A DNA stretch of 64,000 nucleotides from assembly GCA_000002445.1 (NCBI GenBank), contig AL929603.2, positions 608,001-672,000 of the forward strand. Reading direction: 5' to 3'. Position numbers and translations under genes: made by a program. The notes beneath the pieces are model-generated. The model was not told the origin of the DNA and made no database searches. It worked only from the letters and a program-made list of their open reading frames with translations. The stretch comes from Trypanosoma brucei. Its lineage: Eukaryota. Of this stretch, positions 7,001-46,200 are shown one piece after another (within the stretch, counting starts at the first letter, position 1; each line of letters starts with the position of its first letter).

Positions 7001-8595
7001 ATATATAAATATTTATTAATTAATATATTTGTATAAGGGGAGATATGAAATATGAAATGTGGTAAGAAATAAATAAGAATACGAAAAGGAAAAGGAAAAG
7101 AAAAAAAAAGGAAACACGTTTCAAATAAATTTTAGTTCGATACATTCCGTCGAGCTCATTTCATTTATGCATCAAACTCTTTTCCATCTTCCATTGTTTC
7201 ATATTATTATTTTTTTCCCCTCTTCCCCCGTGTCTTTTCTCTCCTCTTTCCACCACGCGTAGGCGTCACCTCAACTCTTATGCGCATGTTTTGAAATTAA
7301 ATTAAATTAATTTGATTTGATTTGATTTGATTTTTCAAAAAGAAAAAAAAGAAAAGAAGTGATCCCCTGGGAGGGGCGCAACGCTGTGCAATCGCGTATT
7401 CGTGTCTCTGAAATTCCCTTTTTGTTTGTTTGTTTGTTTGTTTGTTTGTTTTTATTTGAAAAGGTAATAGTAAAAAAAAGAAAATAAACAAGCAAGCAAA
7501 TAAATAAATAAAGGGAATTTTTATTTTTTTAAAAAAAAAAAAGAGGAAAGGAAAGGAAAGGAAAACGAAATAAACGTGTATTTTTTCTTTTCTTTTCTTC
7601 TCTTTTTTTGGTATTACAAATAATATGATCATGTTGCGCCGTCCCCGTTTGTGTGCTGCTTATGCATGATGATGATGATGATGATGTTTTGTTTTTGTTT
7701 TTGTTTTTGTTTTCAGTTGTTGTTGTTGTTGTTGTTCTTTTTATTGTTTCATCTTTTTCTTTTTTTTTCCTTCTTTTCCATTACTTCTTGTTGAAGAAAT
7801 TAATTGTTTTTTGTTTTTGTTTTTTGTTTTTTGTTTGTTTTTTGTTTTTTGGATGTTTGCTTCTGTGCTTTTTTTTCCTCTTTTTGGAATGTTCCCGTCA
7901 CTCGTCAGTTTTCCAACTGCATTACTGAAAAGAGGCGGGAACATTCCAAAAAGAGGGAGAAATGAAGAGAAGAGAAGAGGGATTTTGTGAATCCCAAACA
8001 AGAGAAAGGAGAGAGAAAAGATATACAATAAACCACTTGCAAATGCAAATGCAAATGTAAAAAAAAATGATTGAATTAAATTAATAAGTTATATATGTAT
8101 CTGATTTAAATTGGTTTAAATTGACAAAAGAAAAAAACGTTCCCTTCTTTTTTTTCCTCTTTTTTTTCTCTTTTTTTATTTCTTTTTTTTTATTTTATTG
8201 GTTATACATCAGTATGGGGAAATATAAAACCAAGTAAAAGACACATATTAGTTATCATAGTAAATACACGCCATAAAAAAAAAAAAGTGGGGGAGAATAA
8301 CCTCGAACATCCCTTCGAAGTTGGCTAAGTTCAAAAACAAAAACAAAAAGGAAGGGGGTCACCCATACATATTTGTATTCATTAAACAAACGCAAAGAAA
8401 AGGAAAAAAAGAAAGATAGAAAAGAATAAAACAAAAGAGAAATATATATATATATATACGTACACATATAGAAGTAAGGAAGGAAAAAAAGAAAGAAAGA
8501 ATTTTTATAAAATAAGGGAAAGAGGAATAAAAAGAAGCAATAAATATTACTTTTGAAAAAGATATCTATCTATCTGATATATATATATATATATA
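4034..8595 (+). other. 4.5-kb ORF-poor low-complexity spacer (probable long 3'UTR/intergenic region with pyrimidine tracts, (TA)n, (GTTT)n, C14 runs)
   Basis: There are no ORFs with non-repetitive translations. Six-frame ORFs here translate to poly-F/L/K/C strings. A (tttg)n run lies at about 7425-7450 and 'gatttgatttgattt' at 7311-7330. C14 homopolymers lie at 4883-4896 and 6689-6702. Confidence 0.6.
6973..6992 (+). other. G-quadruplex-capable motif (GGGGAGGGGAGGGGAGG)
   Basis: Four G runs of at least 3 with 1-nt loops, read directly. Confidence 0.5.

Positions 8596-28504: not shown

Positions 28505-28508
<4 letters not shown>

Positions 28509-28540
<32 letters not shown>
28509..28540. repeat. 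(CA)n microsatellite
   Basis: cacacacacacacacacacacacacacacacg read directly. Confidence 0.9.
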
Positions 28541-28541
<1 letters not shown>

Positions 28542-29376
28542 CACGGATACACCATTCCATGACGACGGCGGACACGTGACCTCCGTACAACAGGAAAGTG
28601 AATGGTCGGGAACTCGGTCGCTTAAAGTGGAACGACCAAGATGCCGGTGGGGGATGCAGTTAGTTTAAGGGAAAAAAATCTGTTACCGCGTAGGCTCTTC
28701 AGCAGTTAGCTCCGACTGCCCCACAGTTGCCACGCACGCCTGATTGCGGTGCCAGTGTGAACTGGGTTGTCTTTCCGGTGCCAGTAAAGGCAGAGCAAAC
28801 AGCAGTGACTCGCACCCGCTACTGCAAGAGCAAAAACTGGCACGTTTAGGTGACGTTGCGTTGCATCATCTCAAAACATGTTTCCACCACTTGCGGGAAG
28901 GTCCAGCAACCTCAGTTACAAAATTTTGCCGCGCGGCGAACTGGCACGCACACGTACAGCAGGGGTTTTTGCATCTCACCGGTGGAATTTCTGCCCCTCC
29001 ATGAAAGGATAGACAAAAAAAAGGAGGATCTCTCAAATGTCATGGCGCGGAGTCTTATGAGGAAGCGAAAATTAGAGGAAAACGGTTTAGCGAGCCTCTC
29101 CACGGGGACACCGTGCGTATGTTACAAAACAAGCTTTGGCGCGTTTACACACCACCCGCTGTAAGATGGCTATGGAGTGCGGACTTGGGAAAGACGGACT
29201 CACAGAATCCGTAGGAATGGACTGAAGGGAGGGGGGCGATGGAACAGCCAGAAAACAAGTCACAAGCGTGTCAACTTTTACCTAGCGACCCACACTGATT
29301 TCCCTCATCTGCCTTTGAGGTCGGAGCCCGCGAAAGTGATGGATGGGAAACACATCCTTAAGCGAGTAAGGAATAA

Positions 29377-29662
29377 AGAATGTCTCCTGCAGTTTCGGTG
29401 TGTATGGGCGTTTCGTGGCATAAGAGTCAGTTCGCGAATGCCTGTGCGGAAGCCCAACGAATACGACCCTACTACGCAGCTGCCTCAGCGCATGAACTGG
29501 TATCATGGCAACTGCCACGCGGTGGAAGAGGATTAAAGGCCTAAACAATTTGAGAGTGCTTTGTTAATATAAACAACGGGTAAAAATGTGATAACACTTG
29601 GCAGCATGCCATCAGCAGTATCATCCGCACTAATCTGCTGCTGGCCGGTGATGTGGAAGAGA
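29377..29662. repeat. left arm of a 286-bp perfect or near-perfect inverted repeat (partner 31561-31846)
   Basis: The reverse complement of 29377-29662 matches 31561-31846 base for base over every stretch I checked by hand. For example, 'cacttggcagcatgccatcagcagtatcatccgcactaatctgctgctggccggtgatgtggaagag' pairs with 'ctcttccacatcaccggccagcagcagattagtgcggatgatactgctgatggcatgctgccaagtg'. The same 88-aa translation also appears on opposite strands (ORFs 29282-29548 - and 31675-31857 +). Confidence 0.9.
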
Positions 29663-31560
29663 GGGGAAGGCAGGGGGTGTTGTCTCCAGTGAAGGAGAGG
29701 TCCATCACGTTGCTTACCCGATTTGCTTTCGGAAACGTGGCCGCATCTGTGCTTGCTTCCGTCTCGCTCCCTCAGTGGCGAGGGGTCCTTGTCTCTTCCC
29801 TAATGCTACCGCGATGTCTCGAGTTCTGTGCTCTTGCTTGTGGTGCGTTGTGGATTCGCCCCTCGATTTCGTTGTGTGATCACATTCCCGATTTTTGGGT
29901 GGAAGTTGTGTCCTTCTGTCTTTCCGAACTCCGGACGCTTCTCTTCCCTTCTTCAAATGCACTATTGCACTCATTGGGTACAGTTGCCGTGGAGTTACAT
30001 TCGGGTGCCGGACTCTTCGGTGGTTTGTTAATCCACCCTTGGACTTGGGTACAAAAGAACACAGGGCACACTGAAGAGTGTTCTCCGATTCTGTTGTTTG
30101 TTCACTTCCCTCTGGGTTTTCTGTTGTTCCGCGCGGTGGTGCTACACCCGAGTGTGCGGTCTCTCTGTGCCTTGTTTGCCAAGTCTTCGATTTGAAGGTC
30201 CTCTCGCAGATCAAGCAGGGATACATAATAGTATCCGCAGCGGTTTGCGGTGTTTCTGTGTTTGGCGGCGGTTCGGGAGGTGGGAGGGCCAAATTGGAAT
30301 CCTCCTCCATCTCCTCGCGGGAATTCGAGTCGCCGTTTGCCCTGCTCGTATGGCACTCCATGGGTTCGTTGCATGTGTATAGCGCCATTTTGCCGGTCCG
30401 AGCATCGCAGCCCACAAATTGGGCAAACTGTTGGATCGCTTGCACGTGTGGATGTTGGTCTCACACTCACGAGCTCCACTGTCTGGCTTTTTGCCACATT
30501 GCACCACCATTTCCATGTGTTGGGGATATTAGGGTTCAATTTCCTGTCCAACCCACCCGTACGTAGGTGATGCACCCGTGCGGAGTTGAGTGAGTAGGGT
30601 TTATTCCTTTCTGGACAGCGAGGTCTTGAGGTTTGTGTTCTTCCAGTGTCCAGTAAGTGTGGCCCTATGTGTTTGTGGCTTTTCCCTTGTAGTGCGCAGC
30701 AGCCTTTTCGCTGCTGCAACCACATCCGGTATCCATGCAGTTCGCATTTGTGGTTGCTCTGCTGTGTCAGCTTGCTCATTACCCGCTATTCCACAGTGAC
30801 CAAATATGAACTGAATACGAATCCGTCCTCCTTTACTTTGGAGTTGGATGAGTAGTGTCCATATTTAGCGCAGTACTGTGTCCGTAACTGTAAGCGGGCC
30901 CGTGTGCAGAGCTGCTACCATTGACCATGAGTCCGTAAATATCAATAATCGGAAGTTTTGTTTTTCTGCTTTATCGATCTCTTTGGACAGTTGTTTCAGG
31001 CCAATTATTAGGACTACACATTCAGCTCTATAGCTGCATGCAAGTCGTCCCGTTCCTTCGAGCACTTTGTGCAGGAGTTTGCCATTCTTGACGATGAGAG
31101 CTGCCGCTCCTGATTTTCCTCCAGTGTTACAGATCCGTCTGTCCACACTTCGTAGTGTGATAGAACGACAGGGTTATTGCCCTTTTCTTCTAATAACGGC
31201 GCTTTATCCATCTTTCGGATGTCTCACGTTTGAGTTCTTCCTCCGAGTCTCTCTTCACATTCGGGGGAATGGCGTAGTGAAACAGACATCTGTTCGCTGT
31301 ATCCAGAAATATGGACACCACTCTGTGGTGTATGCGGATTCTACCTGAAGTTGTGGGTATTCTTTCTTCACATTAAGTAGAAGTTGACGAACAGGACGAG
31401 TGGGGTTATACACCAGCGTTGAGCTCTCATTTAGGGCACCCCCACTGGATCCGCAGCATAATAGGTAGACTACTCCTCGGAGTGTTGCCTCTTCACGTAA
31501 TCTCTCCTTGAGTTTGCCCAGCGCAGTTCCACCGCGCCCCGCTCAACGACGGGCCAATAT
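29663..31560 (-). mobile_element. degenerate 3' fragment of an ingi/L1Tc-clade non-LTR retroposon (DIRE-like): RNase H domain plus C-terminal C2H2 zinc-finger region, frameshifted
   Basis: - strand ORF 31014-31211 contains 'VWTDGS' (RNase H N-terminal motif). ORF 30865-31146 contains 'LLIFTDSWSMVAAL' (RNase H core). ORFs 30102-30779 and 29714-30445 contain C2H2 fingers: 'VCPICGLRCSDRQNGAIHMQRTHG' and 'YPCLICERTFKSKTWQTRHRETAHSG'. The domains lie in different frames, which indicates decay. Domain order (RNase H then ZF) matches the L1Tc/ingi ORF C-terminus (established knowledge). There is no intact RT or endonuclease. Confidence 0.6.
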
Positions 31561-31846
31561 TCTCTTCCACATCACCGGCCAGCAGCAGATTAGTGCGGAT
31601 GATACTGCTGATGGCATGCTGCCAAGTGTTATCACATTTTTACCCGTTGTTTATATTAACAAAGCACTCTCAAATTGTTTAGGCCTTTAATCCTCTTCCA
31701 CCGCGTGGCAGTTGCCATGATACCAGTTCATGCGCTGAGGCAGCTGCGTAGTAGGGTCGTATTCGTTGGGCTTCCGCACAGGCATTCGCGAACTGACTCT
31801 TATGCCACGAAACGCCCATACACACCGAAACTGCAGGAGACATTCT
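31561..31846. repeat. right arm of the 286-bp inverted repeat; its distal 68 bp (31778-31846) is also the first bases of the transporter tandem-repeat unit
   Basis: See the left-arm entry. 31778 onward ('acaggcattcgcgaactgactcttatgccacgaaacgcc...') recurs at 35773, 39771 and 43774. Confidence 0.9.
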
Positions 31847-33278
31847 GTTGCTGCTAGCCCCACGGTGGATGATGGGCCATCTCACACTCCCACAACTGTG
31901 CCTTAATGTACAACACGGAAAGTACAGCAAGAAGACGCAGCGGCCACCAACTCTTTCGCAACGTTGCGTAACCACGTTGATATCCTCTCGGATCAGCAGA
32001 AAACTTTCGCCCGCTGATTGCCCGACCTACACCTCAACATTGTTATCGGCGGAAGGAAGCACCACCGAGAATCTCAAATATAATCACCGTGGTCCCACCA
32101 CCACTTTCAGCGCTACAGCTTCTAATCCCATCATCTTTCCCAATTAATATCCCCCTTACTCAAATATGCATCCCCCTGGGGCATGCCATCGTAATAGATA
32201 ATATAAACCTTACCCCTCCACATCAGAAATGGAGGCATCATCCAAGTTATATCCCATGTTACAACCCACCCTCCTCATCCTCACAGGACATATCGTTTGT
32301 TATCCAACCAGCAAGAGCGCAATATTCTCTCATGTCCCCCTTTTGTTTCTGGTCAGTCCAACAGTTGCAAAACTAACAAATTTCGACCCCGTATTCTTGT
32401 GGTCGAGGAATGGAACAAAGCATATGCAACGCTCACTGAAAGCGGCATGACGCCACACTAGAGAAACTATACCAGCATCGATAGTAGTCAAACACTGGGT
32501 GGGATAATAACAGCCAACATGTGCATCCAAATAACCCTTTTTCCTCCTATGCAAGCCTAAATCAGCCAACAGAAAACAAGAGGCAGCGCAATGATAACAA
32601 AGGAAGGTTAGGGGGCACCACCTGTACATAACGAGAGCAGCAGCAAGCAACGGTAAAGGAAGGAGGTTGTGATGCTGCCAAATAGTTGGGAGCACTCAAC
32701 AGCAGAAAATAAAACAAGAAAAGGTAAACAAAATGAAACGGTAAGAAAATGAAGAAAATAATAAGTAAGGTGCTCTGGAAGAAAATAAATATAATATGTA
32801 GAGTACAACATTATGACTAAAGAACGAAACTACGAGAAAATAAAACACCATTGACATGGAGGAAAGTTAGACATCAAAAGAAAAGCACCAGCGGCCACAC
32901 AGTGCGAGCACACGGGTAAGCTGAGTTTGCGTCTATTTGCACAATACGTGCTTTGACTTCCAAAGACGGACACAAGTGCGCGCTGATTTCATGAGTGAGG
33001 AACGAAGTGGTGTTGCAGATTTATAACAAAAGTCACAGAGGAGAAATAATAGGGTGGTAATATAAATAAAAGGGTAAGTTACGGCACCGAGAGTGACTTT
33101 TCACAATTTCTTGGAAAGTAGAAATAAAAGGAGCAATGCTCCGTACAACAATGTTGAGGTGCTGATGCAAAGGAAAACAACATATTCATGTATTTGTTAA
33201 GGGAGAAAAGTAATAAGAATTCGTTTTCAATATTATTGCACGGCCCACCTGACATTAGTGCCAACGATACGAGCCGCG

Positions 33279-35237
33279 TCAGGACCTCTTGGGCGCGATC
33301 CCGTTGCCCTCCGCATTGGGTGTCACATCGCTGTCCCCTTCACAGACAGTTTCTTTCCCCTCAGGGGAAACATCAGCCGCCACCTTCCTCACGGGTTTGC
33401 CGTCTCCATCCAACTCCTCGTCCATGCGAGCATCGGGGAGAAGAGTAAAGATGAGAGGGATCTGAATGCACGGTGCCACGAAGCCGGAAATGAGCACAAG
33501 CCACTTTACATTGGCGAAGTCACATGGCACCAGTGTTTTCACAGGCAGAGCATATTCCATTATAACTGACCCAAGGGAACTACCCACCGTGCTACCGAAA
33601 TTGCTCGATGCAGCAAGAATAGCGTACACAGTACTCTCGCTTCCACGAGGACACAACCGTGAAAGAATAATGGTTAACGGCATCCAGTTCATCATCCCGA
33701 TCACAGGAGATATGACGACATCGCAGCAGAAGTAAATCAAGTAGTCACTGACGTATGGCCGGTTCCATCGCATCACTATAATGAAGTCGAAGATGTTGGA
33801 GACGATGAGGAACACCAGTGTCAAGAAGTAAGTCATCCGATAAGTCTTTTTTGAAAGGAAGTAATTGAACAGCACGACACCCAGAGCTGAAGTGACACTT
33901 CCAACTGTTCCACCAACAGTCTGCAGGAAAAAAAGACTGAAGTGAGGTCCACCCGGATTGCAATCGGGTCCGCTCAGGAAGAACGGGGTGACAGCACCAC
34001 CAAAAGACACCGTAGACGCATTGTTCAAGTAACTGAACAGATTCACCTTCGCGACCGCCCACGACAGCGCATAGAAATTGAAAGAGCAGTGCCCCACGGA
34101 AACGACAGCCGCGGCAATGAGTAAATGCAGCCTCGATCCAAACAAGGAGGTTATGGCAACACCAACAACAAAGAATGCTATTAGCACGCTGTATATTGTC
34201 TCACGCTTGTTGCGCTCAAGGACCTCTTCGTTCATCTGGAACACACCGCAGCAGCACTCACGAGGCTCCCTGAACACAAATGGCTTCACAGCTGCCTCAC
34301 CGCCGTCAGCGTTAGGCCCCGCCACCGGCTCGCTGTTTGTCACTTGGCGCTCCACCATCCCACCATTTACGTCAATTGGATCATTGTCATCAGCCACCGG
34401 AGGGGTGTCCTTAGCCTCTTTTAACTTCTGCTCGTGGAGCACATGGGCATCGATGTACCGCTCCTCACGGTTGGGCAGTTCACCAAACCAATTGAACAGG
34501 AAGAATGGTGCCACCAGCAGCTGGACAGCGCTACCTATCATGGGAGATATCTGCGGTATGCCAGCGTCACCCAAAGGACCAACAATAACGGAAACAAAGA
34601 GACCAGCCAGGATAATGAACCACCAAACCCAACTCACCAGAGCAGGCCCTGGACCAGGCACACGGCGCATCATCCGGCTGTATAGTCCCTGCGATAGAAT
34701 GTCCGTACATGCCCTGCTGAGCCCAGAGAAGAAGAGGAACACGGAAGCAATTGCTGCACTCGATGGCTGCGCTGGGAGCAGAGCAAAGCCAAGGGAGAAT
34801 GCGGGACCGACGAGATTCGCCACAAACATGTACCACCGTTTGGTATAACCGAAGAACGGGAATATGTCGCTGATAGCAGCCAAAAGAGGCTTCACAGACC
34901 ACCCCATGCCGGCGATGTTAGTTAGCCGCTGGTAGACAAGACCCTCGACAGTGAAACGGTTCAAAAACATCGCAATAATGGATCCACCAACAAGTCCGTC
35001 AGCAAGACCCTTACACAAGAAATACGATAATCCAATGGAAAGCACGGGCTTAGGACCATAGCCCTCAGCTGCCTCCCCGAACAAGGGGATGTGCCGAAGA
35101 CACGGAACCTTGTTGAACAGGGCCCGTGCCTCGGGGTGCACAAACGTTGCCTCCTTAGATTCCTCACTGTGTAGCTCAGCGACGAGTACGGCATCACCAC
35201 CCCGCGCATCGAACGAACCATCTTCCTGTCGACCCAT
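33279..35237 (-). CDS. folate/biopterin (pteridine) transporter, BT1/FBT family, 652 aa (array copy 1, promoter-distal)
   Basis: Polytopic membrane protein with about 12 hydrophobic segments. The N-terminal 'PLFGEAAEGYGPKPVLSIGLSYFLCKGLADGLVGGSIIAMFL' matches the conserved BT1-family N-terminal motif of Leishmania/Trypanosoma pteridine and folate transporters. There is a long cytosolic loop between TM6 and TM7 (from memory). Confidence 0.85.
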   Translation of the reverse strand: MGRQEDGSFDARGGDAVLVAELHSEESKEATFVHPEARALFNKVPCLRHIPLFGEAAEGYGPKPVLSIGLSYFLCKGLADGLVGGSIIAMFLNRFTVEGLVYQRLTNIAGMGWSVKPLLAAISDIFPFFGYTKRWYMFVANLVGPAFSLGFALLPAQPSSAAIASVFLFFSGLSRACTDILSQGLYSRMMRRVPGPGPALVSWVWWFIILAGLFVSVIVGPLGDAGIPQISPMIGSAVQLLVAPFFLFNWFGELPNREERYIDAHVLHEQKLKEAKDTPPVADDNDPIDVNGGMVERQVTNSEPVAGPNADGGEAAVKPFVFREPRECCCGVFQMNEEVLERNKRETIYSVLIAFFVVGVAITSLFGSRLHLLIAAAVVSVGHCSFNFYALSWAVAKVNLFSYLNNASTVSFGGAVTPFFLSGPDCNPGGPHFSLFFLQTVGGTVGSVTSALGVVLFNYFLSKKTYRMTYFLTLVFLIVSNIFDFIIVMRWNRPYVSDYLIYFCCDVVISPVIGMMNWMPLTIILSRLCPRGSESTVYAILAASSNFGSTVGSSLGSVIMEYALPVKTLVPCDFANVKWLVLISGFVAPCIQIPLIFTLLPDARMDEELDGDGKPVRKVAADVSPEGKETVCEGDSDVTPNAEGNGIAPKRS

Positions 35238-37276
35238 CGTCAGCTTTTATGACCAATGCTTAGCTAACATTCACGAGCCACACACAAAACAATACGAAAA
35301 ACAAAGAGGTGAGAAGATATGTTGAGGAATCAAATAATAAAAGAAACGCACACACGAACCACAGGGCACCAACGTTTCAACAACACCGTGCCTCAGCATA
35401 ACTATGGCACACCAAAACCTCGCACACACAAATACACAAACACGTACTTGCGCATCGGGACATCAACCAACTCTGCGAAGTTAACATTAGAGTCGATTTC
35501 CACAGCCCCTTCCTGTCTCCAGAGGGTCCTTACAGCAACCATGATTAAACGACAAAGCGTCCCTCCACAGATATAGGGAAAATTAGGTAAATATCTGCAG
35601 TAGTCCATTTATAGCACGTTCATTCTTCACATGTCAGTTAGTGGGGGAAAGGTAACATGTACGTGACGGCCGGTCCTATTATCAAGAAGTAATAGAAAAG
35701 GCACTACATACGCGTAGCCACACAACTCATGATGTGAGGATATGCAACAACACTATGATTAGCAAAAATGATACAGGCATTCGCGAACTGACTCTTATGC
35801 CACGAAACGCCCATACACACCGAAACTGCAGGAGACATTCTGTTGCTGCTAGCCCCACGGTGGATGATGGGCCATCTCACACTCCCACAACTGTGCCTTA
35901 ATGTACAACACGGAAAGTACAGCAAGAAGACGCAGCGGCCACCAACTCTTTCGCAACGTTGCGTAACCACGTTGATATCCTCTCGGATCAGCAGAAAACT
36001 TTCGCCCGCTGATTGCCCGACCTACACCTCAACATTGTTATCGGCGGAAGGAAGCACCACCGAGAATCTCAAATATAATCACCGTGGTCCCACCACCACT
36101 TTCAGCGCTACAGCTTCTAATCCCATCATCTTTCCCAATTAATATCCCCCTTACTCAAATATGCATCCCCCTGGGGCATGCCATCGTAATAGATAATATA
36201 AACCTTACCCCTCCACATCAGAAATGGAGGCATCATCCAAGTTATATCCCATGTTACAACCCACCCTCCTCATCCTCACAGGACATATCGTTTGTTATCC
36301 AACCAGCAAGAGCGCAATATTCTCTCATGTCCCCCTTTTGTTTCTGGTCAGTCCAACAGTTGCAAAACTAACAAATTTCGACCCCGTATTCTTGTGGTCG
36401 AGGAATGGAACAAAGCATATGCAACGCTCACTGAAAGCGGCATGACGCCACACTAGAGAAACTATACCAGCATCGATAGTAGTCAAACACTGGGTGGGAT
36501 AATAACAGCCAACATGTGCATCCAAATAACCCTTTTTCCTCCTATGCAAGCCTAAATCAGCCAACAGAAAACAAGAGGCAGCGCAATGATAACAAAGGAA
36601 GGTTAGGGGGCACCACCTGTACATAACGAGAGCAGCAGCAAGCAACGGTAAAGGAAGGAGGTTGTGATGCTGCCAAATAGTTGGGAGCACTCAACAGCAG
36701 AAAATAAAACAAGAAAAGGTAAACAAAATGAAACGGTAAGAAAATGAAGAAAATAATAAGTAAGGTGCTCTGGAAGAAAATAAATATAATATGTAGAGTA
36801 CAACATTATGACTAAAGAACGAAACTACGAGAAAATAAAACACCATTGACATGGAGGAAAGTTAGACATCAAAAGAAAAGCACCAGCGGCCACACAGTGC
36901 GAGCACACGGGTAAGCTGAGTTTGCGTCTATTTGCACAATACGTGCTTTGACTTCCAAAGACGGACACAAGTGCGCGCTGATTTCATGAGTGAGGAACGA
37001 AGTGGTGTTGCAGATTTATAACAAAAGTCACGGAGGAGAAATAATAGGGTGGTAATATAAAAAAATAAAAGGGTAAGTTACGGCACCAAGAGTGACTTTT
37101 CACAATTTCTCGGGAAGGATAAATTAAAAGAACAATGCTCCGTACAACAATGTTGGAGTGCTGATGCAACAAAAACAACATATTCATGCGTTTGTTAAGA
37201 GAGAAAAGTAATAAGAATTCATTTTCAATATTATTGCACGGCCCACCTGACATTAGTGCCAACGATACGAGCCGCG

Positions 37277-39235
37277 TCAGGACCTCTTGGGCGCGATCCC
37301 GTTGCCCTCCGCATTGGGTGTCACATCGCTGTCCCCTTCACAGACAGTTTCTTTCCCCTCAGGGGAAACATCAGCCGCCACCTTCCTCACGGGTTTGCCG
37401 TCTCCATCCAACTCCTCGTCCATGCGAGCATCGGGGAGAAGAGTAAAGATGAGAGGGATCTGAATGCACGGTGCCACGAAGCCGGAAATGAGCACAAGCC
37501 ACTTTACATTGGCGAAGTCACATGGCACCAGTGTTTTCACAGGCAGAGCATATTCCATTATAACTGACCCAAGGGAACTACCCACCGTGCTACCGAAATT
37601 GCTCGATGCAGCAAGAATAGCGTACACAGTACTCTCGCTTCCACGAGGACACAACCGTGAAAGAATAATGGTTAACGGCATCCAGTTCATCATCCCGATC
37701 ACAGGAGATATGACGAGATCGCAGCAGAAGTAAATCAAGTAGTCACTGACGTATGGCCGGTTCCATCGCATCACTATAATGAAGTCGAAGATGTTGGAGA
37801 CGATGAGGAACACCAGTGTCAAGAAGTAAGTCATCCGATAAGTCTTTTTTGAAAGGAAGTAATTGAACAGCACGACACCCAGAGCTGAAGTGACACTTTC
37901 AACTGTTCCACCAACAGTCTGCAGGAAAAAAAGACTGAAGTGAGGTCCACCCGGATTGCAATCGGGTCCGCTCAGGAAGAACGGGGTGACAGCACCACCA
38001 AAAAATAACGTAGACGCATTGTTCAAGTAACTGAACAGATTCACCTTCGCGACCGCCCACGACAGCGCATAGAAATTGAAAGAGCAGTGCCCCACGGAAA
38101 CGACAGCCGCGGCAATGAGTAAATGCAGCCTCGATCCAAACAAGGAGGTTATGGCAACACCAACAACAAAGAATGCTATTAGCACGCTGTATATTGTCTC
38201 ACGCTTGTTGCGCTCAAGGACCTCTTCGTTCATCTGGAACACACCGCAGCAGCACTCACGAGGCTCCCTGAACACAAATGGCTTCACAGCTGCCTCACCG
38301 CCGTCAGCGTTAGGCCCCGCCACCGGCTCGCTGTTTGTCACTTGGCGCTCCACCATCCCACCATTTACGTCAATTGGATCATTGTCATCAGCCACCGGAG
38401 GGGTGTCCTTAGCCTCTTTTAACTTCTGCTCGTGGAGCACATGGGCATCGATGTACCGCTCCTCACGGTTGGGCAGTTCACCAAACCAATTGAACAGGAA
38501 GAATGGTGCCACCAGCAGCTGGACAGCGCTACCTATCATGGGAGATATCTGCGGTATGCCAGCGTCACCCAAAGGACCAACAATAACGGAAACAAAGAGA
38601 CCAGCCAGGATAATGAACCACCAAACCCAACTCACCAGAGCAGGCCCTGGACCAGGCACACGGCGCATCATCCGGCTGTATAGTCCCTGCGATAGAATGT
38701 CCGTACATGCCCTGCTGAGCCCAGAGAAGAAGAGGAACACGGAAGCAATTGCTGCACTCGATGGCTGCGCTGGGAGCAGAGCAAAGCCAAGGGAGAATGC
38801 GGGACCGACGAGATTCGCCACAAACATGTACCACCGTTTGGTATAACCGAAGAACGGGAATATGTCGCTGATAGCAGCCAAAAGAGGCTTCACAGACCAC
38901 CCCATGCCGGCGATGTTAGTTAGCCGCTGGTAGACAAGACCCTCAACACCGAGACGATCCAAAAACATCGCAATAATGGATCCACCAACAAGTCCGTCAG
39001 CAAGACCCTTACACAAGAAATACGATAATCCAATGGAAAGCACGGGCTTAGGACCATAGCCCTCAGCTGCCTCCCCGAACAAGGGGATGTGCCGAAGACA
39101 CGGAACCTTGTTGAACAGAGCCCGTGCCTCGGGGTGCACAAACGTTGCCTCCTTAGATTCCTCACTGTGTAGCTCAGCGACGAGTACGGCATCACCACCC
39201 CGCGCATCGAACGAACCATCTTCCTGTCGACCCAT
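37277..39235 (-). CDS. folate/biopterin (pteridine) transporter, BT1/FBT family, 652 aa (array copy 2)
   Basis: About 99% identical to copy 1. It differs at a few residues, e.g. 'FLDRLGVEGL' versus copy 1 'FLNRFTVEGL', 'NASTLFFGG' versus 'NASTVSFGG', 'GGTVESVTS' versus 'GGTVGSVTS', 'CCDLVIS' versus 'CCDVVIS'. Confidence 0.85.
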   Translation of the reverse strand: MGRQEDGSFDARGGDAVLVAELHSEESKEATFVHPEARALFNKVPCLRHIPLFGEAAEGYGPKPVLSIGLSYFLCKGLADGLVGGSIIAMFLDRLGVEGLVYQRLTNIAGMGWSVKPLLAAISDIFPFFGYTKRWYMFVANLVGPAFSLGFALLPAQPSSAAIASVFLFFSGLSRACTDILSQGLYSRMMRRVPGPGPALVSWVWWFIILAGLFVSVIVGPLGDAGIPQISPMIGSAVQLLVAPFFLFNWFGELPNREERYIDAHVLHEQKLKEAKDTPPVADDNDPIDVNGGMVERQVTNSEPVAGPNADGGEAAVKPFVFREPRECCCGVFQMNEEVLERNKRETIYSVLIAFFVVGVAITSLFGSRLHLLIAAAVVSVGHCSFNFYALSWAVAKVNLFSYLNNASTLFFGGAVTPFFLSGPDCNPGGPHFSLFFLQTVGGTVESVTSALGVVLFNYFLSKKTYRMTYFLTLVFLIVSNIFDFIIVMRWNRPYVSDYLIYFCCDLVISPVIGMMNWMPLTIILSRLCPRGSESTVYAILAASSNFGSTVGSSLGSVIMEYALPVKTLVPCDFANVKWLVLISGFVAPCIQIPLIFTLLPDARMDEELDGDGKPVRKVAADVSPEGKETVCEGDSDVTPNAEGNGIAPKRS

Positions 39236-41279
39236 CGTCAGCTTTTATGACCAATGCTTAGCTAACATTCACGAGCCACACACAAAACAATACGAAAAAC
39301 AAAGAGGTGAGAAGATATGTTGAGGAATCAAATAATAAAAGAAACGCACACACGAACCACAGGGCACCAACGTTTCAACAACACCGTGCCTCAGCATAAC
39401 TATGGCACACCAAAACCTCGCACACACAAATACACAAACACGTACTTGCGCATCGGGACATCAACCAACTCTGCGAAGTTAACATTAGAGTCGATTTCCA
39501 CAGCCCCTTCCTGTCTCCAGAGGGTCCTTACAGCAACCATGATTAAACGACAAAGCGTCCCTCCACAGATATAGGGAAAATTAGGTAAATATCTGCAGTA
39601 GTCCATTTATAGCACGTTCATTCTTCACATGTCAGTTAGTGGGGGAAAGGTAACATGTACGTGACGGCCGGTCCTATTATCAAGAAGTAATAGAAAAGGC
39701 ACTACATACGCGTAGCCACACAACTCATGATGTGAGGATATGCAACAACACTATGATTAGCAAAAATGATACAGGCATTCGCGAACTGACTCTTATGCCA
39801 CGAAACGCCCATACACACCGAAACTGCAGGAGACATTCTGTTGCTGCTAGCCCCACGGTGGATGATGGGCCATCTCACACTCCCACAACTGTGCCTTAAT
39901 GTACAACACGGAAAGTACAGCAAGAAGACGCAGCGGCCACCAACTCTTTCGCAACGTTGCGTAACCACGTTGATATCCTCTCGGATCAGCAGAAAACTTT
40001 CGCCCGCTGATTGCCCGACCTACACCTCAACATTGTTATCGGCGGAAGGAAGCACCACCGAGAATCTCAAATATAATCACCGTGGTCCCACCACCACTTT
40101 CAGCGCTACAGCTTCTAATCCCATCATCTTTCCCAATTAATATCCCCCTTACTCAAATATGCATCCCCCTGGGGCATGCCATCGTAATAGATAATATAAA
40201 CCTTACCCCTCCACATCAGAAATGGAGGCATCATCCAAGTTATATCCCATGTTACAACCCACCCTCCTCATCCTCACAGGACATATCGTTTGTTATCCAA
40301 CCAGCAAGAGCGCAATATTCTCTCATGTCCCCCTTTTGTTTCTGGTCAGTCCAACAGTTGCAAAACTAACAAATTTCGACCCCGTATTCTTGTGGTCGAG
40401 GAATGGAACAAAGCATATGCAACGCTCACTGAAAGCGGCATGACGCCACACTAGAGAAACTATACCAGCATCGATAGTAGTCAAACACTGGGTGGGATAA
40501 TAACAGCCAACATGTGCATCCAAATAACCCTTTTTCCTCCTATGCAAGCCTAAATCAGCCAACAGAAAACAAGAGGCAGCGCAATGATAACAAAGGAAGG
40601 TTAGGGGGCACCACCTGTACATAACGAGAGCAGCAGCAAGCAACGGTAAAGGAAGGAGGTTGTGATGCTGCCAAATAGTTGGGAGCACTCAACAGCAGAA
40701 AATAAAACAAGAAAAGGTAAACAAAATGAAACGGTAAGAAAATGAAGAAAATAATAAGTAAGGTGCTCTGGAAGAAAATAAATATAATATGTAGAGTACA
40801 ACATTATGACTAAAGAACGAAACTACGAGAAAATAAAACACCATTGACATGGAGGAAAGTTAGACATCAAAAGAAAAGCACCAGCGGCCACACAGTGCGA
40901 GCACACGGGTAAGCTGAGTTTGCGTCTATTTGCACAATACGTGCCTTGACTTCCAAAGACGGACACAAGTGCGCGCTGATTTCATGAGTGAGGAACGAAG
41001 TGGTGTTGCAGATTTATAACAAAAGTCACAGAGGAGAAATAATAGGGTGGTAATATAAAAAAATAAAAGGGTAAGTTACGGCACCAAGAGTGACTTTTCA
41101 CAATTTCTCGGGAAGGATAAATTAAAAGAACAATGCCCCGTACAACAATGTTGGAGTGCTGATACAACAAAGGAAAAACAACATATTCATGCGTTTGTTA
41201 ATAGAGAAAAGTAATAAGAATTCATTTTCAATATTATTGCACGGCCCACCTGACATTAGTGCCAACGATACGAGCCGCG

Positions 41280-43238
41280 TCAGGACCTCTTGGGCGCGAT
41301 CCCGTTGCCCTCCGCATTGGGTGTCACATCGCTGTCCCCTTCACAGACAGTTTCTTTCCCCTCAGGGGAAACATCAGCCGCCACCTTCCTCACGGGTTTG
41401 CCGTCTCCATCCAACTCCTCGTCCATGCGAGCATCGGGGAGAAGAGTAAAGATGAGAGGGATCTGAATGCACGGTGCCACGAAGCCGGAAATGAGCACAA
41501 GCCACTTTACATTGGCGAAGTCACATGGCACCAGTGTTTTCACAGGCAGAGCATATTCCATTATAACTGACCCAAGGGAACTACCCACCGTGCCGCCGAA
41601 ATTGCTCGATGCAGCAAGAATAGCGTACACAGTACTCTCGCTTCCACGAGGACACAACCGTGAAAGAATAATGGTTAACGGCATCCAGTGCATCATCCCG
41701 ATCACAGGAGATATGACGACATCGCAGCAGAAGTAAATCAAGTAGTCACTGACGTATGGCCGGTTCCATCGCATCACTATAATGAAGTCGAAGATGTTGG
41801 AGACGATGAGGAACACCAGTGTCAAGAAGTAAGTCATCCGATAAGTCTTTTTTGAAAGGAAGTAATTGAACAGCACGACACCCAGAGCTGAAGTGACACT
41901 TCCAACTGTTCCACCAACAGTCTGCAGGAAAAAAAGACTGAAGTGAGGTCCACCCGGATTGCAATCGGGTCCGGTCAGGAAGAACGGGGTGACAGCACCA
42001 CCAAAAGACACCGTAGACGCATTGTGCAAGTAACTGAACAGATTCACCTTCGCGACCGCCCACGACAGCGCATAGAAATTGAAAGAGCAGTGCCCCACGG
42101 AAACGACAGCCGCGGCAATGAGTAAATGCAGCCTCGATCCAAACAAGGAGGTTATGGCAACACCAACAACAAAGAATGCTATTAGCACGCTGTATATTGT
42201 CTCACGCTTGTTGCGCTCAAGGACCTCTTCGTTCATCTGGAACACACCGCAGCAGCACTCACGAGGCTCCCTGAACACAAATGGCTTCACAGCTGCCTCA
42301 CCGCCGTCAGCGTTAGGCCCCGCCACCGGCTCGCTGTTTGTCACTTGGCGCTCCACCATCCCACCATTTACGTCAATTAGATCATTGTCATCAGCCACCG
42401 GAGGGGTGTCCTTAGCCTCTTTTAACTTCTGCTCGTGGAGCACATGGGCATCGATGTACCGCTCCTCACGGTTGGGCAGTTCACCAAACCAATTGAACAG
42501 GAAGAATGGTGCCACCAGCAGCTGGACAGCGCTACCTATCATGGGAGATATCTGCGGTATGCCAGCGTCACCCAAAGGACCAACAATAACGGAAACAAAG
42601 AGACCAGCCAGGATAATGAACCACCAAACCCAACTCACCAGAGCAGGCCCTGGACCAGGCACACGGCGCATCATCCGGCTGTATAGTCCCTGCGATAGAA
42701 TGTCCGTACATGCCCTGCTGAGCCCAGAGAAGAAGAGGAACACGGAAGCAATTGCTGCACTCGATGGCTGCGCTGGGAGCAGAGCAAAGCCAAGGGAGAA
42801 TGCGGGACCGACGAGATTCGCCACAAACATGTACCACCGTTTGGTATAACCGAAGAACGGGAATATGTCGCTGATAGCAGCCAAAAGAGGCTTCACAGAC
42901 CACCCCATGCCGGCGATGTTAGTTAGCCGCTGGTAGACAAGACCCTCAACACCGAAACGGTTCAAAAACATCGCAATAATGGATCCACCAACAAGTCCGT
43001 TGGCAAGACCCTTACACAAGAAATACGATAATCCAATGGAAAGCACGGGCTTAGGACCATAGCCCTCAGCTGCCTCCCCGAACAAGGGGATGTGCCGAAG
43101 ACACGGAACCTTGTTGAACAGAGCCCGTGCCTCGGGGTGCACAAACGTTGCCTCCTTAGATTCCTCACTGTGTAGCTCAGCGACGAGTACGGCATCACCA
43201 CCCCGCGCATCGAACGAACCATCTTCCTGTCGACCCAT
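41280..43238 (-). CDS. folate/biopterin (pteridine) transporter, BT1/FBT family, 652 aa (array copy 3, promoter-proximal)
   Basis: About 99% identical to copies 1 and 2. Copy-specific residues include 'KGLANGL', 'FLNRFGVEGL', 'DNDLIDV', 'YLHNAS', 'FFLTGPD', 'MMHWMP', 'SNFGGTVG'. Confidence 0.85.
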   Translation of the reverse strand: MGRQEDGSFDARGGDAVLVAELHSEESKEATFVHPEARALFNKVPCLRHIPLFGEAAEGYGPKPVLSIGLSYFLCKGLANGLVGGSIIAMFLNRFGVEGLVYQRLTNIAGMGWSVKPLLAAISDIFPFFGYTKRWYMFVANLVGPAFSLGFALLPAQPSSAAIASVFLFFSGLSRACTDILSQGLYSRMMRRVPGPGPALVSWVWWFIILAGLFVSVIVGPLGDAGIPQISPMIGSAVQLLVAPFFLFNWFGELPNREERYIDAHVLHEQKLKEAKDTPPVADDNDLIDVNGGMVERQVTNSEPVAGPNADGGEAAVKPFVFREPRECCCGVFQMNEEVLERNKRETIYSVLIAFFVVGVAITSLFGSRLHLLIAAAVVSVGHCSFNFYALSWAVAKVNLFSYLHNASTVSFGGAVTPFFLTGPDCNPGGPHFSLFFLQTVGGTVGSVTSALGVVLFNYFLSKKTYRMTYFLTLVFLIVSNIFDFIIVMRWNRPYVSDYLIYFCCDVVISPVIGMMHWMPLTIILSRLCPRGSESTVYAILAASSNFGGTVGSSLGSVIMEYALPVKTLVPCDFANVKWLVLISGFVAPCIQIPLIFTLLPDARMDEELDGDGKPVRKVAADVSPEGKETVCEGDSDVTPNAEGNGIAPKRS

Positions 43239-46200
43239 CGTCAGCTTTTATGACCAATGCTTAGCTAACATTCACGAGCCACACACAAAACAACACGAAA
43301 AACAAAGAGGTGAGAAGATATGTTGAGGAATCAAATAATAAAAGAAACGCACACACGAACCACAGGGCACCAACGTTTCAACAACACCGTGCCTCAGCAT
43401 AACTATGGCACACCAAAACCTCGCACACACAAATACACAAACACGTACTTGCGCATCGGGACATCAACCAACTCTGCGAAGTTAACATTAGAGTCGATTT
43501 CCACAGCCCCTTCCTGTCTCCAGAGGGTCCTTACAGCAACCATGACTAAACGACAAAGCGTCCCTCCACAGATATAGGGAAAATTAGGTAAATATCTGCA
43601 GTAGTCCATTTATAGCACGTTCATTCTTCACATGTCAGTTAGTGGGGGAAAGGTAACATGTACGTGACGGCCGGTCCTATTATCAAGAAGTAATAGAAAA
43701 GGCACTACATACGCGTAGCCACACAACTCATGATGTGAGGATATGCAACAACACTATGATTAGCAAAAATGATACAGGCATTCGCGAACTGACTCTTATG
43801 CCACGAAACGCCCATACACACCGAAACTGCAGGAGACATTCTGTTGCTGCTAGCCCCACGGTGGATGATGGGCCATCTCACACTCCCACAACTGTGCCTT
43901 GATGTACAACACAGTCTTGCCAGCTAATTTCATTGATCTTTATAGGGGATAGAGGACTGTTTTTCGGTATGAATACTAATGTTATGATATCTTCGAGTTT
44001 GTTATCTGAATAATCTATGATCTCATTTCCTGTTGCGGAATAGGAAAGTACCAACCAACGCCATAATGTACCTACGCATTACAAGAATTTATTCCATGTT
44101 TAACTTCAGTGTCGTTCTCGGGCGCACTTAAGCATTCTTGCCGTTGCCGAGTATTCGCCAAATGTAATGTGTTTGAAGTGCCTTCTCTCCCCCCTCTTAA
44201 GCTCCTTACTAGTACATGTTTTGTGGCTTTGACTGTGATGTGATTCATGGGGGGCTGTTCTTCAATTCTGTTCAGTTTCTGGTGGCATGCAGGTGTTTTT
44301 CCAGGTATGTATTGCTTATCACCTCAGTTGCTCCTACCAATGGAACGCAAATGTGCGTTGCCTTTCAGTGTTATAGATGTGTCTGTCAGATTGCATGACA
44401 CGTATGTGCTACTTTATGAACATCTCCTTTTGAAATCCGTTGGCTCCAGCACCGCTATCACCACGTCTCTTTGTAAAATGCATCATGTAGGCTCCATCCA
44501 CATGACCTCCATTGTTCACTTCCCCACCACCACCCAACCCCCTCCCTTCACCTTTGGATGTCACCGTCCCCTATTGGTTAATGGATGCATCCGTCAGTAG
44601 TGGTTTTGTGACTGCCAGAGTTGGGGTGGTTTGACGGGGGTACTCTTCATTGCATCAATCCACTTTCAGCCAACCATCGATTTGTGAGGAGGTGATTCCG
44701 CTGGATCTTTGTCCTTTCATGCACTGCGCTGAAGTTGTGAGAACTGCTGAAGCATCATCCTCAAAAAAGAAGTGGCATGTAAAAGCTGATCCCGATCGCG
44801 CACCTGCGCTGCAGATCTCGACCGACGTGAAGCTACCTAATTCTTTCACCGTGGGCCTTCCAAGGGGTGTCGATCCACTGAGCGTTCCTGCCTTTTTTTT
44901 TTCTTCCACTCAAAGGAACTGGACCTCTTGTGGTTAAACAGCTCCAGGAGAAGTCACAGCCCTTTATCAGTGTCGTTTTATTCCACCACCCCCCCCCTCC
45001 CTCCCCTGCTGCTGCGCCCTGTCGCACATCTTCCTGCTACAGTATTTACCCCCACTGCTACCCACTCTTTTTTTTTCAGCCTGTCCAAAAAGCCGTCGTG
45101 AGTCCAAACGCGTATTTTTAGCTAAGTCGGTAATGTACGCCACGTTTTCAGCGCCCCAGAGTTGTCTGCCAGTCCTCTCTATTGCGTGCGAAATGTCTGG
45201 ACCGTATTGACAGTACAGCGGGAGCTGAGAGATCTCCACAGACCACCCCGTCTCCGTCCGATATCGAAAGTCCGTGTATGTACCACCCGGCAAACCCACC
45301 TAGAAAAAAAAAAAGAAGGCCCGCAAACAAAAGATGGTAACTACCTCGTCATGCAGCGCAAATTGCGCCCCGGCGAAACAGTCTCCTCGTAGTCCTCCTG
45401 GCATATTTTTTTTCTGTTTGGGTAATGAACAGCCTTCTTCGTAGCAACCTTTTTTCCTCACGCTATTGTAAAAGGAGCTAATGGTAAAAGAAAACTACCC
45501 ATTATGCAGCGGTTGAGGCCGATACTTCCGTAACCACCCGCGTCGTTTCCTTTCGCATTTCATCCGCTTCGGAATTCGTGAACAGGGCTCCTGTCCCTAA
45601 CTCCAGCCCACTCAAGTGACAATATGTTAACGTCCCCTTGTTGCGGTACCATTCGCTACAGCTCCTCTTGAGCAGCTATCTCTCACGATGAGTGCTTCGA
45701 AGAATGCCGCTGCTGCTCTGAAGAGACGGCCCTGTCTGATCACATGTTACTTCCCAGGATTCCCCATAAAGTAGTTAATTCTTCTTTCCCTCTCTAGAGG
45801 AGCGTCTCCAACAAAAACGCCTCATTTAACAGATCGAACTAAGCCCTTAGTTGTTTGTGTCTCGGTGGGGGAACTCTATTAGGTCCTTATGTTTTTCTAG
45901 GGAACTAATTTCGATAATTTTTCGGAGTGCTCCCCAACCGATGTTGATTCTTTCCCTCACCCGATGTTGGCAAGCCAATTTTTTTCTTTCCAAACGGCGT
46001 TATCCCGCCCCATTGGCCACCCCCAACCCACACCAGCTACGGTACAATGTACTCTTTTCCGTTGTCAGAGTTTTGCCTATAAGTTTGAGTTACCACCTCT
46101 CTACAGGACATGCTTGTCCCCATCGATTGATGTTTCCGCCTAAAGACCTGCAAGAAACATCTATCCCGGTGTTCTACGTGGATCCAGTAACGCTAACAGG

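Follow-up and report, generated by a model that had tools for sequence, protein, structure and literature searches.

A three-unit tandem array of putative pteridine transporter genes on chromosome 1 of Trypanosoma brucei and its probable concerted evolution

Results

Organization of the array

Self-BLAST of the window (the whole 64,000-nucleotide stretch of T. brucei DNA that was analyzed) bounded 3.03 head-to-tail units between positions 31778 and 43912, with start-to-start spacings of 3995, 3998, and 4003 bp and pairwise unit identities of 99.2-99.4%. The spacings are those of the repeat families, and both the three-copy array of ~4-kb units and the ~99% identity proposed in the initial annotation were confirmed. 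A 12-kb repeat at 99% identity far exceeds what chance can explain, and the regular period, single-strand location, and head-to-tail order are those of a concertedly evolving tandem gene array. Because all three encoded proteins (3/3) exactly match entries of TREU927 chromosome 1, the locus is the Tb927.1.2820/2850/2880 array of Trypanosoma brucei brucei TREU927, whose genes carry the name "pteridine transporter, putative" (PMC5114424). The features of the array are as follows.

31778-43912, minus strand: whole array, three full units and a 139-bp partial unit
31778-35772, minus strand: unit 1 in plus-strand coordinates, transcribed last, 3995 bp
35773-39770, minus strand: unit 2, 3998 bp
39771-43773, minus strand: unit 3, transcribed first, 4003 bp
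43774-43912, minus strand: partial fourth unit, 139 bp, at the upstream array end (4 mismatches over the 910-bp stretch ending here)
33279-35237, minus strand: CDS of copy 1, 652 aa, BT1; exact match to CAJ16453/XP_001218979, presumably Tb927.1.2820 from accession order
37277-39235, minus strand: CDS of copy 2, 652 aa, BT1; exact match to CAJ16462/XP_001218982, presumably Tb927.1.2850
41280-43238, minus strand: CDS of copy 3, 652 aa, BT1; exact match to CAJ16465/XP_001218985, presumably Tb927.1.2880
32657-33278, minus strand: putative 3′ UTR of copy 1, 622 nt, placed by the published poly(A) site 622 nt from the stop codon (PMC2504296)
36655-37276 and 40658-41279, minus strand: putative 3′ UTR equivalents of the other copies, placed by the same poly(A) mapping
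31778-32656, minus strand: spacer past the poly(A) site, identical in the three units over 879 bp

Each unit would thus consist of ~0.5 kb of upstream sequence, a 1959-bp CDS, a 622-nt 3′ UTR, and ~0.9 kb of spacer. A polypyrimidine tract and AG acceptors were found directly 5′ of the ATG, within the upstream part of each unit. Neither a Pfam-matching ORF nor an Rfam match was found in the spacer at 31778-32656; its small ORFs (85-121 aa) were regarded as spurious, as were the 256-aa plus-strand ORFs inside each CDS, which start with TTG, run antisense to the gene, and have no Pfam match. A real fourth unit at 43774-44073, suggested by a "60%" repeat-family member, was rejected, the match being limited to the first 139 bp. 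The same 139-bp terminal partial unit was present in the DAL972, IVM-t1, and OVI assemblies.

Family, predicted fold, and relatives

All three copies matched the Pfam BT1 family (PF03092) with E ~1e-116 and 388 bits against a cut-off of 22, covering profile positions 1-430 of 432, and their initial assignment to BT1-family transporters therefore holds. The AlphaFold2 model (pLDDT 82, pTM 0.81) featured two helical halves parted by a disordered loop: six long helices at residues 62-247, a loop at 248-343 (disordered at 283-315), and a helical second half at 344-599. The top 50 Foldseek matches in the PDB were all major-facilitator-superfamily carriers; a sequence search found no solved structures of the BT1 family itself. 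The model is thus consistent with a major-facilitator-type fold of two helical bundles joined by a central cytosolic loop.

In a neighbour-joining tree, the array proteins fell into a Trypanosoma-only clade, in which T. congolense FT3 groups with them and the chromosome 10 paralogue is placed further off. T. congolense FT3, T. congolense FT1, and Tb927.10.9080, which make up one Trypanosoma-specific clade with the array proteins, are their nearest relatives (64%, 63%, and 57% identity, respectively). The two T. congolense proteins have been tested for diamidine sensitization only (bioRxiv 10.1101/2020.07.28.224543). Tb927.10.9080, the chromosome 10 pteridine transporter, is single-copy, unlike the three-gene chromosome 1 array, but its mRNA is DRBD3-dependent, as is that of the array (PMC2504296). 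The T. brucei proteins FT1-3 (Tb927.8.3620/3630/3650) and ESAG10 share the BT1/FBT family with the array proteins, yet they are only ~41% identical to them and form a separate clade. FT1-3 are also encoded by tandem, near-identical copies (96% nucleotide identity; PMC5114424), although that chromosome 8 array is broken by an unrelated gene, whereas the chromosome 1 array is uninterrupted. Leishmania BT1, FT1/FT5, and AdoMetT1 belong to the same Pfam family and presumably use the same 12-helix carrier mechanism, but their identity to the array proteins is ~40%. The tree contained no one-to-one Leishmania BT1 orthologue; the Leishmania sequences retrieved for it included FT5-like proteins and none labelled BT1.

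Sequences flanking the array

A perfect 286-bp inverted repeat was found at the downstream side of the array, and a putative strand-switch region lies at the opposite side.

29377-29662, no strand: left arm of the perfect 286-bp inverted repeat, just past the downstream array end
29663-31560, no strand: segment between the arms, 1898 bp, in the opposite orientation in T. b. gambiense DAL972 and collinear with the window in IVM-t1
31561-31846, no strand: right arm of the 286-bp inverted repeat, comprising 217 bp of flank and the first 69 bp of the array
43913-45900 (right limit approximate), no strand: putative divergent strand-switch region separating the minus-strand array from plus-strand genes, placed by ORF orientation and GC-skew turning points

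The inverted repeat would lie at the transcription-termination end of the array. A retroelement relic between its arms was unsupported, as the ORFs there gave only sub-threshold C2H2 zinc-finger matches; their sole homologue was a DAL972 "hypothetical protein, unlikely". The idea that a degenerate, inverted version of the entire unit lies to the left of the array was also discarded, since sensitive BLAST found just the 69 bp belonging to the inverted-repeat arm. Elsewhere in the window, the AT-rich stretch at 4.0-8.5 kb was considered as centromeric or rRNA-associated, a reading that was dropped: there were no Rfam hits and no tRNAs, and the sole tandem repeat was a (TG)39 tract.

The array genes stand alone on the minus strand, with plus-strand gene clusters on both sides. 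For this reason the array is probably its own short polycistronic transcription unit, as read from ORF orientation and skew. A homopolymer scan located a C9 run at 44989-44997 inside the putative strand-switch region, and small conserved plus-strand ORFs occur at this region in other strains.

Differences among the three copies

The "handful" of differing positions first reported among the 652-aa proteins amounted to 13. Copy 1 (33279) has one private residue, T96, at an otherwise conserved glycine, and copy 2 (37277) has six (D93, L95, L410, F411, E446, and L507). Copy 3 (41280) also has six, at positions 80, 287, 405, 422, 517, and 549, matching the earlier estimate of about six. Copy 3 represents the "H isoform" (H405, H517, and G549), which was also found in DAL972 and IVM-t1. 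Its N80 is common to all DAL972, IVM-t1, and OVI copies, while its L287 and T422, together with D93, L95, and E446 of copy 2, were seen in the 927 assembly only. Other assemblies contained both of the alternative residues at 8 of the 13 sites that vary.

When residues 93-97 were examined, copies 1, 2, and 3 read NRFTV, DRLGV, and NRFGV, respectively, exactly as initially described. The AlphaFold2 model, however, placed residues 93-96 where the first long helix (62-94) ends and in the four-residue turn leading into the second (99-125), that is, at the TM1/TM2 turn and not near TM2-TM3, where the initial annotation had located this cluster. At the nucleotide level, this patch and a second one in the 3′ UTR were delimited.

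34947-34961, minus strand: 15-nt patch with 6 variable nucleotides, codons 93-97
33037-33223 (equivalents 37032-37221 and 41030-41224), minus strand: variable 3′-UTR patch, 56-242 nt past the stop codon

Within the 15-nt patch, copy 3 resembles copy 2 at 34947-34952 and copy 1 at 34955-34961. The 622-nt 3′ UTR holds 24 of the 46 differences among the units, and its variable patch falls into two old haplotypes, both of them present in each of the multi-unit arrays (927, DAL972, and IVM-t1). Overall, the differences among units are clustered (runs test, P=0.006).

Comparison of arrays among strains

The 927 array was compared with those of DAL972 (T. b. gambiense), IVM-t1 (a PacBio assembly), and OVI. 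Unit number varied between strains, with 3.03 units in the 927 assembly and 4.03 in IVM-t1. The DAL972 array contains a 100-N gap, which makes its unit count unreliable and its unit order uncertain, and OVI has one collapsed unit at a contig end, so that its count is unreliable as well. The proneness to copy-number variation and assembly collapse that had been foreseen for this array is supported by these assemblies.

The initial annotation had deduced ongoing gene conversion from a mosaic pattern among the three copies. Three copies alone cannot show a mosaic, because any biallelic site among three sequences singles out one copy, and this part of the argument was insufficient; the homogenization itself, whether by conversion or unequal crossing-over, is supported by the runs test and by the cross-strain comparison. 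At 25 sites, all 927 (and OVI) units were fixed for a different nucleotide from all DAL972 and IVM-t1 units, so that variants are shared within a genome against all copies of another. Spacer divergence was 0.00% within 927 and 0.74% between the array types. In the four-gamete test, 585 of 1770 informative site pairs failed (Rmin 12). This result and the runs test point to recombination among copies, in agreement with the published PHI test (p<0.001) and nine GARD breakpoints for the same array (Jackson et al., 2010; PMC2854126, Table 2, array 5). The same study reported three copies and two isoforms shared with T. b. gambiense (PMC2854126). In our comparison, H405, H517, and G549 occurred in one copy each of 927, DAL972, and IVM-t1, interleaved with strain-specific homogenized sites (2026, 2134, and 2225).

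Discussion

Very probably, the locus comprises the BT1-family, major-facilitator-type carriers Tb927.1.2820/2850/2880, encoded by three head-to-tail genes that evolve in concert. The sequence comparisons support ongoing homogenization by gene conversion or unequal crossing-over. Unequal crossing-over would change the unit number (three versus four), short-tract gene conversion would yield mosaic copies, and a few old differences, the "H isoform" and the two 3′-UTR types, would persist in single copies across strains. The ISG65, BARP, amino-acid transporter, and hexose transporter arrays of T. brucei have the same dynamics, with mosaic copies, strain-specific isoforms, and non-coding sequence that is often less variable than coding sequence. 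Unlike them, the chromosome 1 array is small (3-4 units) and forms its own opposite-strand island.

The greater identity within than between strains would also be given by recent independent duplications in each strain, the units being near-identical through young age with no need for conversion. This is extremely improbable, as the H isoform and the two copy-specific 3′-UTR haplotypes are common to several strains, all four assemblies have the same array boundaries and the same 139-bp partial unit, and the four-gamete failures demand recombination or many recurrent mutations. It is somewhat less improbable, though still very unlikely, that some copy differences are assembly artefacts, either sequencing errors or diploid allelic variants folded into one array. 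Such a reading could call on the 5 of 13 amino-acid variants restricted to the 927 assembly, on the 1-nt deletions in two IVM-t1 CDSs that resemble PacBio errors, and on the warning of Jackson et al. (2010) that the number of units in an assembly can be arbitrary and that variation between copies is difficult to separate from variation between alleles (PMC2854126). However, the variants lie in tracts and are not scattered, and the other 8 sites have both residues in independent assemblies built by different technologies; most of the substitutions are therefore not sequencing errors, one of the outcomes that had been named as refuting the initial annotation.

A further suggestion, tentative and less likely, is that the copy differences are kept by selection as distinct isoforms (H-type versus N-type, and TM1/TM2-turn variants) and as two differently regulated 3′-UTR classes. 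Nonsynonymous to synonymous differences were 14 to 6 among the 927 copies and 1 to 6 among those fixed between array types (Fisher p=0.024), but these counts are small and the p-value is marginal and post hoc. Omega was 0.63-0.95 among the 927 copies versus 0.07-0.10 for copy 1 against DAL972 unit 1 or IVM-t1 unit 4; positive selection was not detected in these comparisons of array copies, omega never exceeding 1, and relaxed constraint explains the figures equally well. One copy in each of three strains retains the H-type residues while neighbours 50-100 nt away are homogenized, an interleaving that very short conversion tracts could give without selection. The spacer is identical across units whereas the CDS and 3′ UTR vary, but near-neutral variation that is greater in coding than in non-coding sequence is the general pattern of T. 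brucei arrays and has been ascribed to gene conversion (Jackson, 2007; PMC1855330). In favour of selection, qPCR and RNA-seq studies have treated the UTRs as a means of detecting the copies separately (PMC4214818; PMC5879877); against it, several variant residues, among them T96, at a family-wide glycine, and E446, look mildly deleterious, not adaptive. More doubtful still is a joint reading in which selection keeps apart at least two isoforms (the N-type and an H-type defined by N405H, N517H, and S549G) as well as two 3′-UTR classes across T. brucei subspecies despite homogenization, while the 286-bp inverted repeat may flip the 1.9-kb segment and its arms could form double-stranded RNA.

Trypanosomatids are auxotrophs for pterin and folate. 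The substrates known across the family include biopterin, folate, and S-adenosylmethionine (PMC5114424), and with this diversity the substrate of the array proteins cannot be read from membership. "Pteridine" in the transporter name is a putative annotation only; the guess usually made, drawn from the family alone, is biopterin or some other pterin. The initial annotation had further linked the array to antifolate sensitivity, with dosage affecting drug response. In its favour, Leishmania FT1/FT5/BT1 and T. brucei FT1-3 are family members that alter the methotrexate response (PMC5114424); T. congolense FT1 and FT3 expressed in T. brucei also give ~2-fold sensitization to diminazene (bioRxiv 10.1101/2020.07.28.224543). 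This link is very improbable and, for classical antifolates in bloodstream forms, largely refuted. Neither the pteridine transporter genes of chromosome 1 nor that of chromosome 10 gave a signal in genome-wide methotrexate or raltitrexed RNAi screens (Dewar et al., 2016; PMC5114424), which argues against classical antifolates as substrates, and biopterin does not compete for folate/methotrexate uptake (PMC5114424). The antifolate carriers are FT1-3 of chromosome 8, which mediate folate and methotrexate uptake and whose loss of function leads to resistance (PMC5114424); the array proteins, at just 41% identity, belong to a different clade.

[quoted passage not shown] Annotation of the reference genome already includes the locus; published work has tested it for recombination, and the regulation of its mRNA has also been a subject of study. 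The whole interpretation offered by the initial annotation was already in print (PMC2854126; PMC1855330). To this the present analysis adds a fourth unit, seen in IVM-t1, the way in which retained sites are interleaved with homogenized ones, and the adjacent inverted repeat.

The importance of the array beyond housekeeping is small, and the useful points are cautionary: sequencing reads are not uniquely assignable among the three genes, the number of units is not the same in every assembly, and citing the locus, with its putative name, as a determinant of antifolate sensitivity should be avoided. Because trypanosomes, to our knowledge, have no gene-specific promoters, tandem copies would raise dosage and the 3′ UTR would set the level of expression. 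If selected isoforms and UTR classes were real, the copies would differ in substrate preference or life-cycle regulation, and the array would not be a mere dosage device.

Organization and identity of the array

The three-copy tandem array of BT1-family genes proposed in the initial annotation was recovered in full. Self-BLAST set the repeat limits at 31778-43912, comprising three full units and a 139-bp partial unit with 99.2-99.4% identity between unit pairs, and direct-repeat families within 28-48 kb of the window gave start-to-start spacings of 3995, 3998, and 4003 bp. Each unit carries a single minus-strand ORF of 652 aa, and all three ORFs matched Pfam BT1 (PF03092) across the entire profile (E about 1e-116).

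Features of the array
31778-35772, full unit 1
33279-35237, minus strand, ORF of copy 1, 652 aa
35773-39770, full unit 2
37277-39235, minus strand, ORF of copy 2, 652 aa
39771-43773, full unit 3
41280-43238, minus strand, ORF of copy 3, 652 aa
43774-43912, partial unit, 139 bp

All three proteins are identical in sequence to entries of the T. b. brucei reference TREU927 (hereafter 927; 1,064,672-bp record), each named 'pteridine transporter, putative'. The chromosome 1 cluster corresponds to Tb927.1.2820, Tb927.1.2850, and Tb927.1.2880 (Dewar et al. 2016, PMC5114424); from accession order, we infer which copy bears which locus tag.

Every unit consists of ~0.5 kb upstream of the ATG, ending in a polypyrimidine tract with AG dinucleotides at most about 35 nt from the ATG, a CDS of 1959 bp, a T-rich 3' UTR with a mapped poly(A) site 622 nt after the stop (Estévez 2008, PMC2504296), and a spacer of ~0.9 kb. 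The spacer and antisense ORFs had no match in Pfam, and Rfam and tRNA scans of the region were empty. Aligned with one another, the three units show 46 differences when every indel is scored as a single event.

Distribution of differences among the three 927 units
Upstream of ATG, 535 bp: 2 differences
CDS, 1959 bp: 20 differences
3' UTR, 622 nt: 24 differences, mostly 56-252 nt after the stop
Spacer past the poly(A) site, 879 bp: 0 differences

Recombination and concerted evolution

The initial annotation had taken the mosaic pattern of the three copies as a sign of gene conversion. Along the unit, the identity of the odd-one-out copy was clustered (runs test P=0.006 overall and 0.018 in the CDS), and at 34947-34961, where six variable nucleotides fall within 15 nt, copy 3 agrees with copy 2 at 34947-34952 and with copy 1 at 34955-34961. 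A mosaic is unprovable from three sequences alone, because each biallelic site just marks one copy; the same locus was therefore compared in T. b. gambiense DAL972, T. b. equiperdum IVM-t1, and T. equiperdum OVI. With these assemblies added, 585 of 1770 informative site pairs failed the four-gamete test and at least 12 recombination events were required, so that the conclusion of the initial annotation was supported even though its three-copy argument was insufficient. Twenty-five sites were uniform across the 927 units and OVI and different from every DAL972 and IVM-t1 unit; these array-type-fixed sites bear the signature of concerted evolution.

Some copy-specific variants predate the strains. 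H405, H517, and G549 (H-type) are combined in one copy each of 927, DAL972, and IVM-t1, and among the units of these three multi-unit arrays two haplotypes of the 3' UTR (sense positions 2644-2665) are found repeatedly. The retained H-type sites (1748, 2084, and 2179-2180) are interleaved with strain-homogenized sites (2026, 2134, and 2225), an arrangement explicable only by very short conversion tracts or by selection that favors the H-type residues. Nonsynonymous and synonymous differences stood at 14:6 among the 927 copies versus 1:6 among those fixed between array types (Fisher p=0.024); omega was 0.63-0.95 among the 927 copies and 0.07-0.10 for copy 1 against DAL972 unit 1 or IVM-t1 unit 4. 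Relaxed constraint and mild diversifying selection are both compatible with these values. Omega did not exceed 1 in the comparisons made, and positive selection is therefore not claimed.

These results extend earlier work. Jackson et al. (2010, PMC2854126) listed this locus as array 5 (sample identifier Tb927.1.2880), with three copies per subspecies, two isoforms shared and one only in T. b. brucei, PHI p<0.001, and nine GARD breakpoints. For T. brucei arrays generally, near-neutral evolution with copies in concert and coding regions often more variable than non-coding ones were attributed to gene conversion (Jackson 2007, PMC1855330).

Copy number and assembly quality

The warning that such arrays vary in copy number and collapse in assemblies was borne out. 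The PacBio assembly of IVM-t1 (CM010672.1; loci L007, 6456-20258, and L009, 1-14592) contains 4.03 units, that is, four full units and a 139-bp partial unit, with boundaries as in 927. Two of its four CDSs carry 1-nt deletions, probably long-read errors, and a single BT1 gene is therefore called there. In DAL972 (FN554964.1), the array is interrupted by a 100-N gap (locus L001, 9823-9932), so that both the number of units (three) and their order are uncertain there. In transcriptional order, the H-type copy comes last in DAL972 and first in 927 and IVM-t1, the result of a genuine reshuffling or else of misordering in the scaffold. OVI showed one unit, at a contig end.

Sequencing error had been raised as a possible source of the copy differences. 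For 8 of the 13 amino acid differences, both alternative residues were found in other assemblies, and these are thus not errors; D93, L95, E446, L287, and T422 occurred in 927 only, among the assemblies compared.

Protein differences, predicted structure, and relatives

The three proteins differ at 13 positions, including, as first reported, residues 93-97 (NRFTV, DRLGV, and NRFGV in copies 1, 2, and 3), and copies 3, 2, and 1 have six, six, and one private residues, respectively. An AlphaFold2 model drawing on 31 homologues was confident (pLDDT 82, pTM 0.81) and featured two helical halves joined by a partly disordered loop. Its top 50 Foldseek matches in the PDB were all major-facilitator-superfamily transporters, and a sequence search returned no solved structure of any family member. 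The first and second long helices span residues 62-94 and 99-125, which places the variable patch 93-96 at the TM1/TM2 turn rather than near TM2-TM3 as initially suggested. G96 is kept in all outgroup family members examined and stays in copies 2, 3, and OVI, whereas T96 (codon at 34950-34952) is found in copy 1 and every DAL972 and IVM-t1 copy.

In a neighbor-joining tree, the array grouped with T. congolense FT3 and was then joined by the chromosome 10 paralogue and a 'pteridine transporter' of T. congolense, forming a clade restricted to Trypanosoma; FT1-3/ESAG10 and the retrieved Leishmania sequences fell outside it.

Chromosomal setting

The neighboring ORFs, among them a PUF protein, an armadillo-repeat protein, a lipase, an M20 peptidase, and an RNA ligase, are in keeping with an ordinary chromosome core of a trypanosome. 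To the left of 28027 and to the right of 48593, every large ORF is on the plus strand, and the cumulative GC skew changes direction at ~30 kb and ~47 kb, so the array forms an isolated minus-strand island, probably a three-gene transcription unit flanked by convergent and divergent strand-switch regions. A C9 run (G9 on the sense strand of the array) at 44989-44997, ~1.1 kb upstream of the array, falls inside the putative divergent region; in T. brucei, G-runs have been associated with regions of transcription start.

Directly past the downstream end of the array, at the putative convergent strand-switch, is a perfect inverted repeat of 286 bp.

Arms of the inverted repeat
29377-29662, left arm
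31561-31846, right arm, extending 69 bp into the array

Relative to the window, the segment enclosed by the arms (29663-31560, 1898 bp) is inverted in DAL972 and collinear in IVM-t1. Arm-to-arm identity is 100% in 927 and DAL972 and 98.95% in IVM-t1, whereas between 927 and IVM-t1 the arms share only about 95% identity; the arms thus co-evolve. Tschudi et al. (2012), who surveyed large inverted repeats, listed seven of at least 422 bp, none on chromosome 1, and the present repeat is not one of them. The invertible segment holds overlapping minus-strand ORFs (29714-30445 and 30102-30779; 243 and 225 aa) with weak, sub-threshold C2H2 zinc-finger matches and, as sole homologue, a DAL972 'hypothetical protein, unlikely'; given such matches, a suspected retroelement relic was unsupported.

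Elsewhere in the window, 4.5 kb of 24-38% G+C (4034-8595) lie downstream of the PUF-domain gene, with C15 and C14 runs (4882-4896 and 6689-6702) and no ORF of at least 180 aa. A centromeric array was ruled out there because tandem repeats, Rfam matches, and tRNAs were absent. A (TG)39 microsatellite occupies 1056-1133, and a related CA/TG tract (28505-28552) directly follows a 403-aa ubiquitin-like gene.

Expression and the antifolate question

DRBD3 binds the array mRNAs, whose levels fall upon its depletion (Estévez 2008, PMC2504296), and late procyclic forms show 4- to 4.6-fold up-regulation (Imhof 2014, PMC4214818; Naguleswaran 2018, PMC5879877). TblncRNA-23 is reported to pair with the array 3' UTR, reducing the mRNA (2025 paper, PMC12008373). 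A pteridine-transporter role of the chromosome 1 proteins is a putative annotation; the nearest functional data concern T. congolense FT1-3, of which FT1 and FT3 expressed in T. brucei gave about 2-fold diminazene sensitization (bioRxiv 10.1101/2020.07.28.224543).

The relevance to antifolate sensitivity assumed initially does not carry over, as the antifolate carriers are FT1-3 on chromosome 8 (Dewar et al. 2016, PMC5114424), 41% identical to the array proteins. In the same study, genome-wide RNAi screens with methotrexate or raltitrexed gave no signal for the chromosome 1 genes. Drug-related significance is therefore not applicable to this locus; the observation of the array is correct and its main interpretation right, and both are already published.
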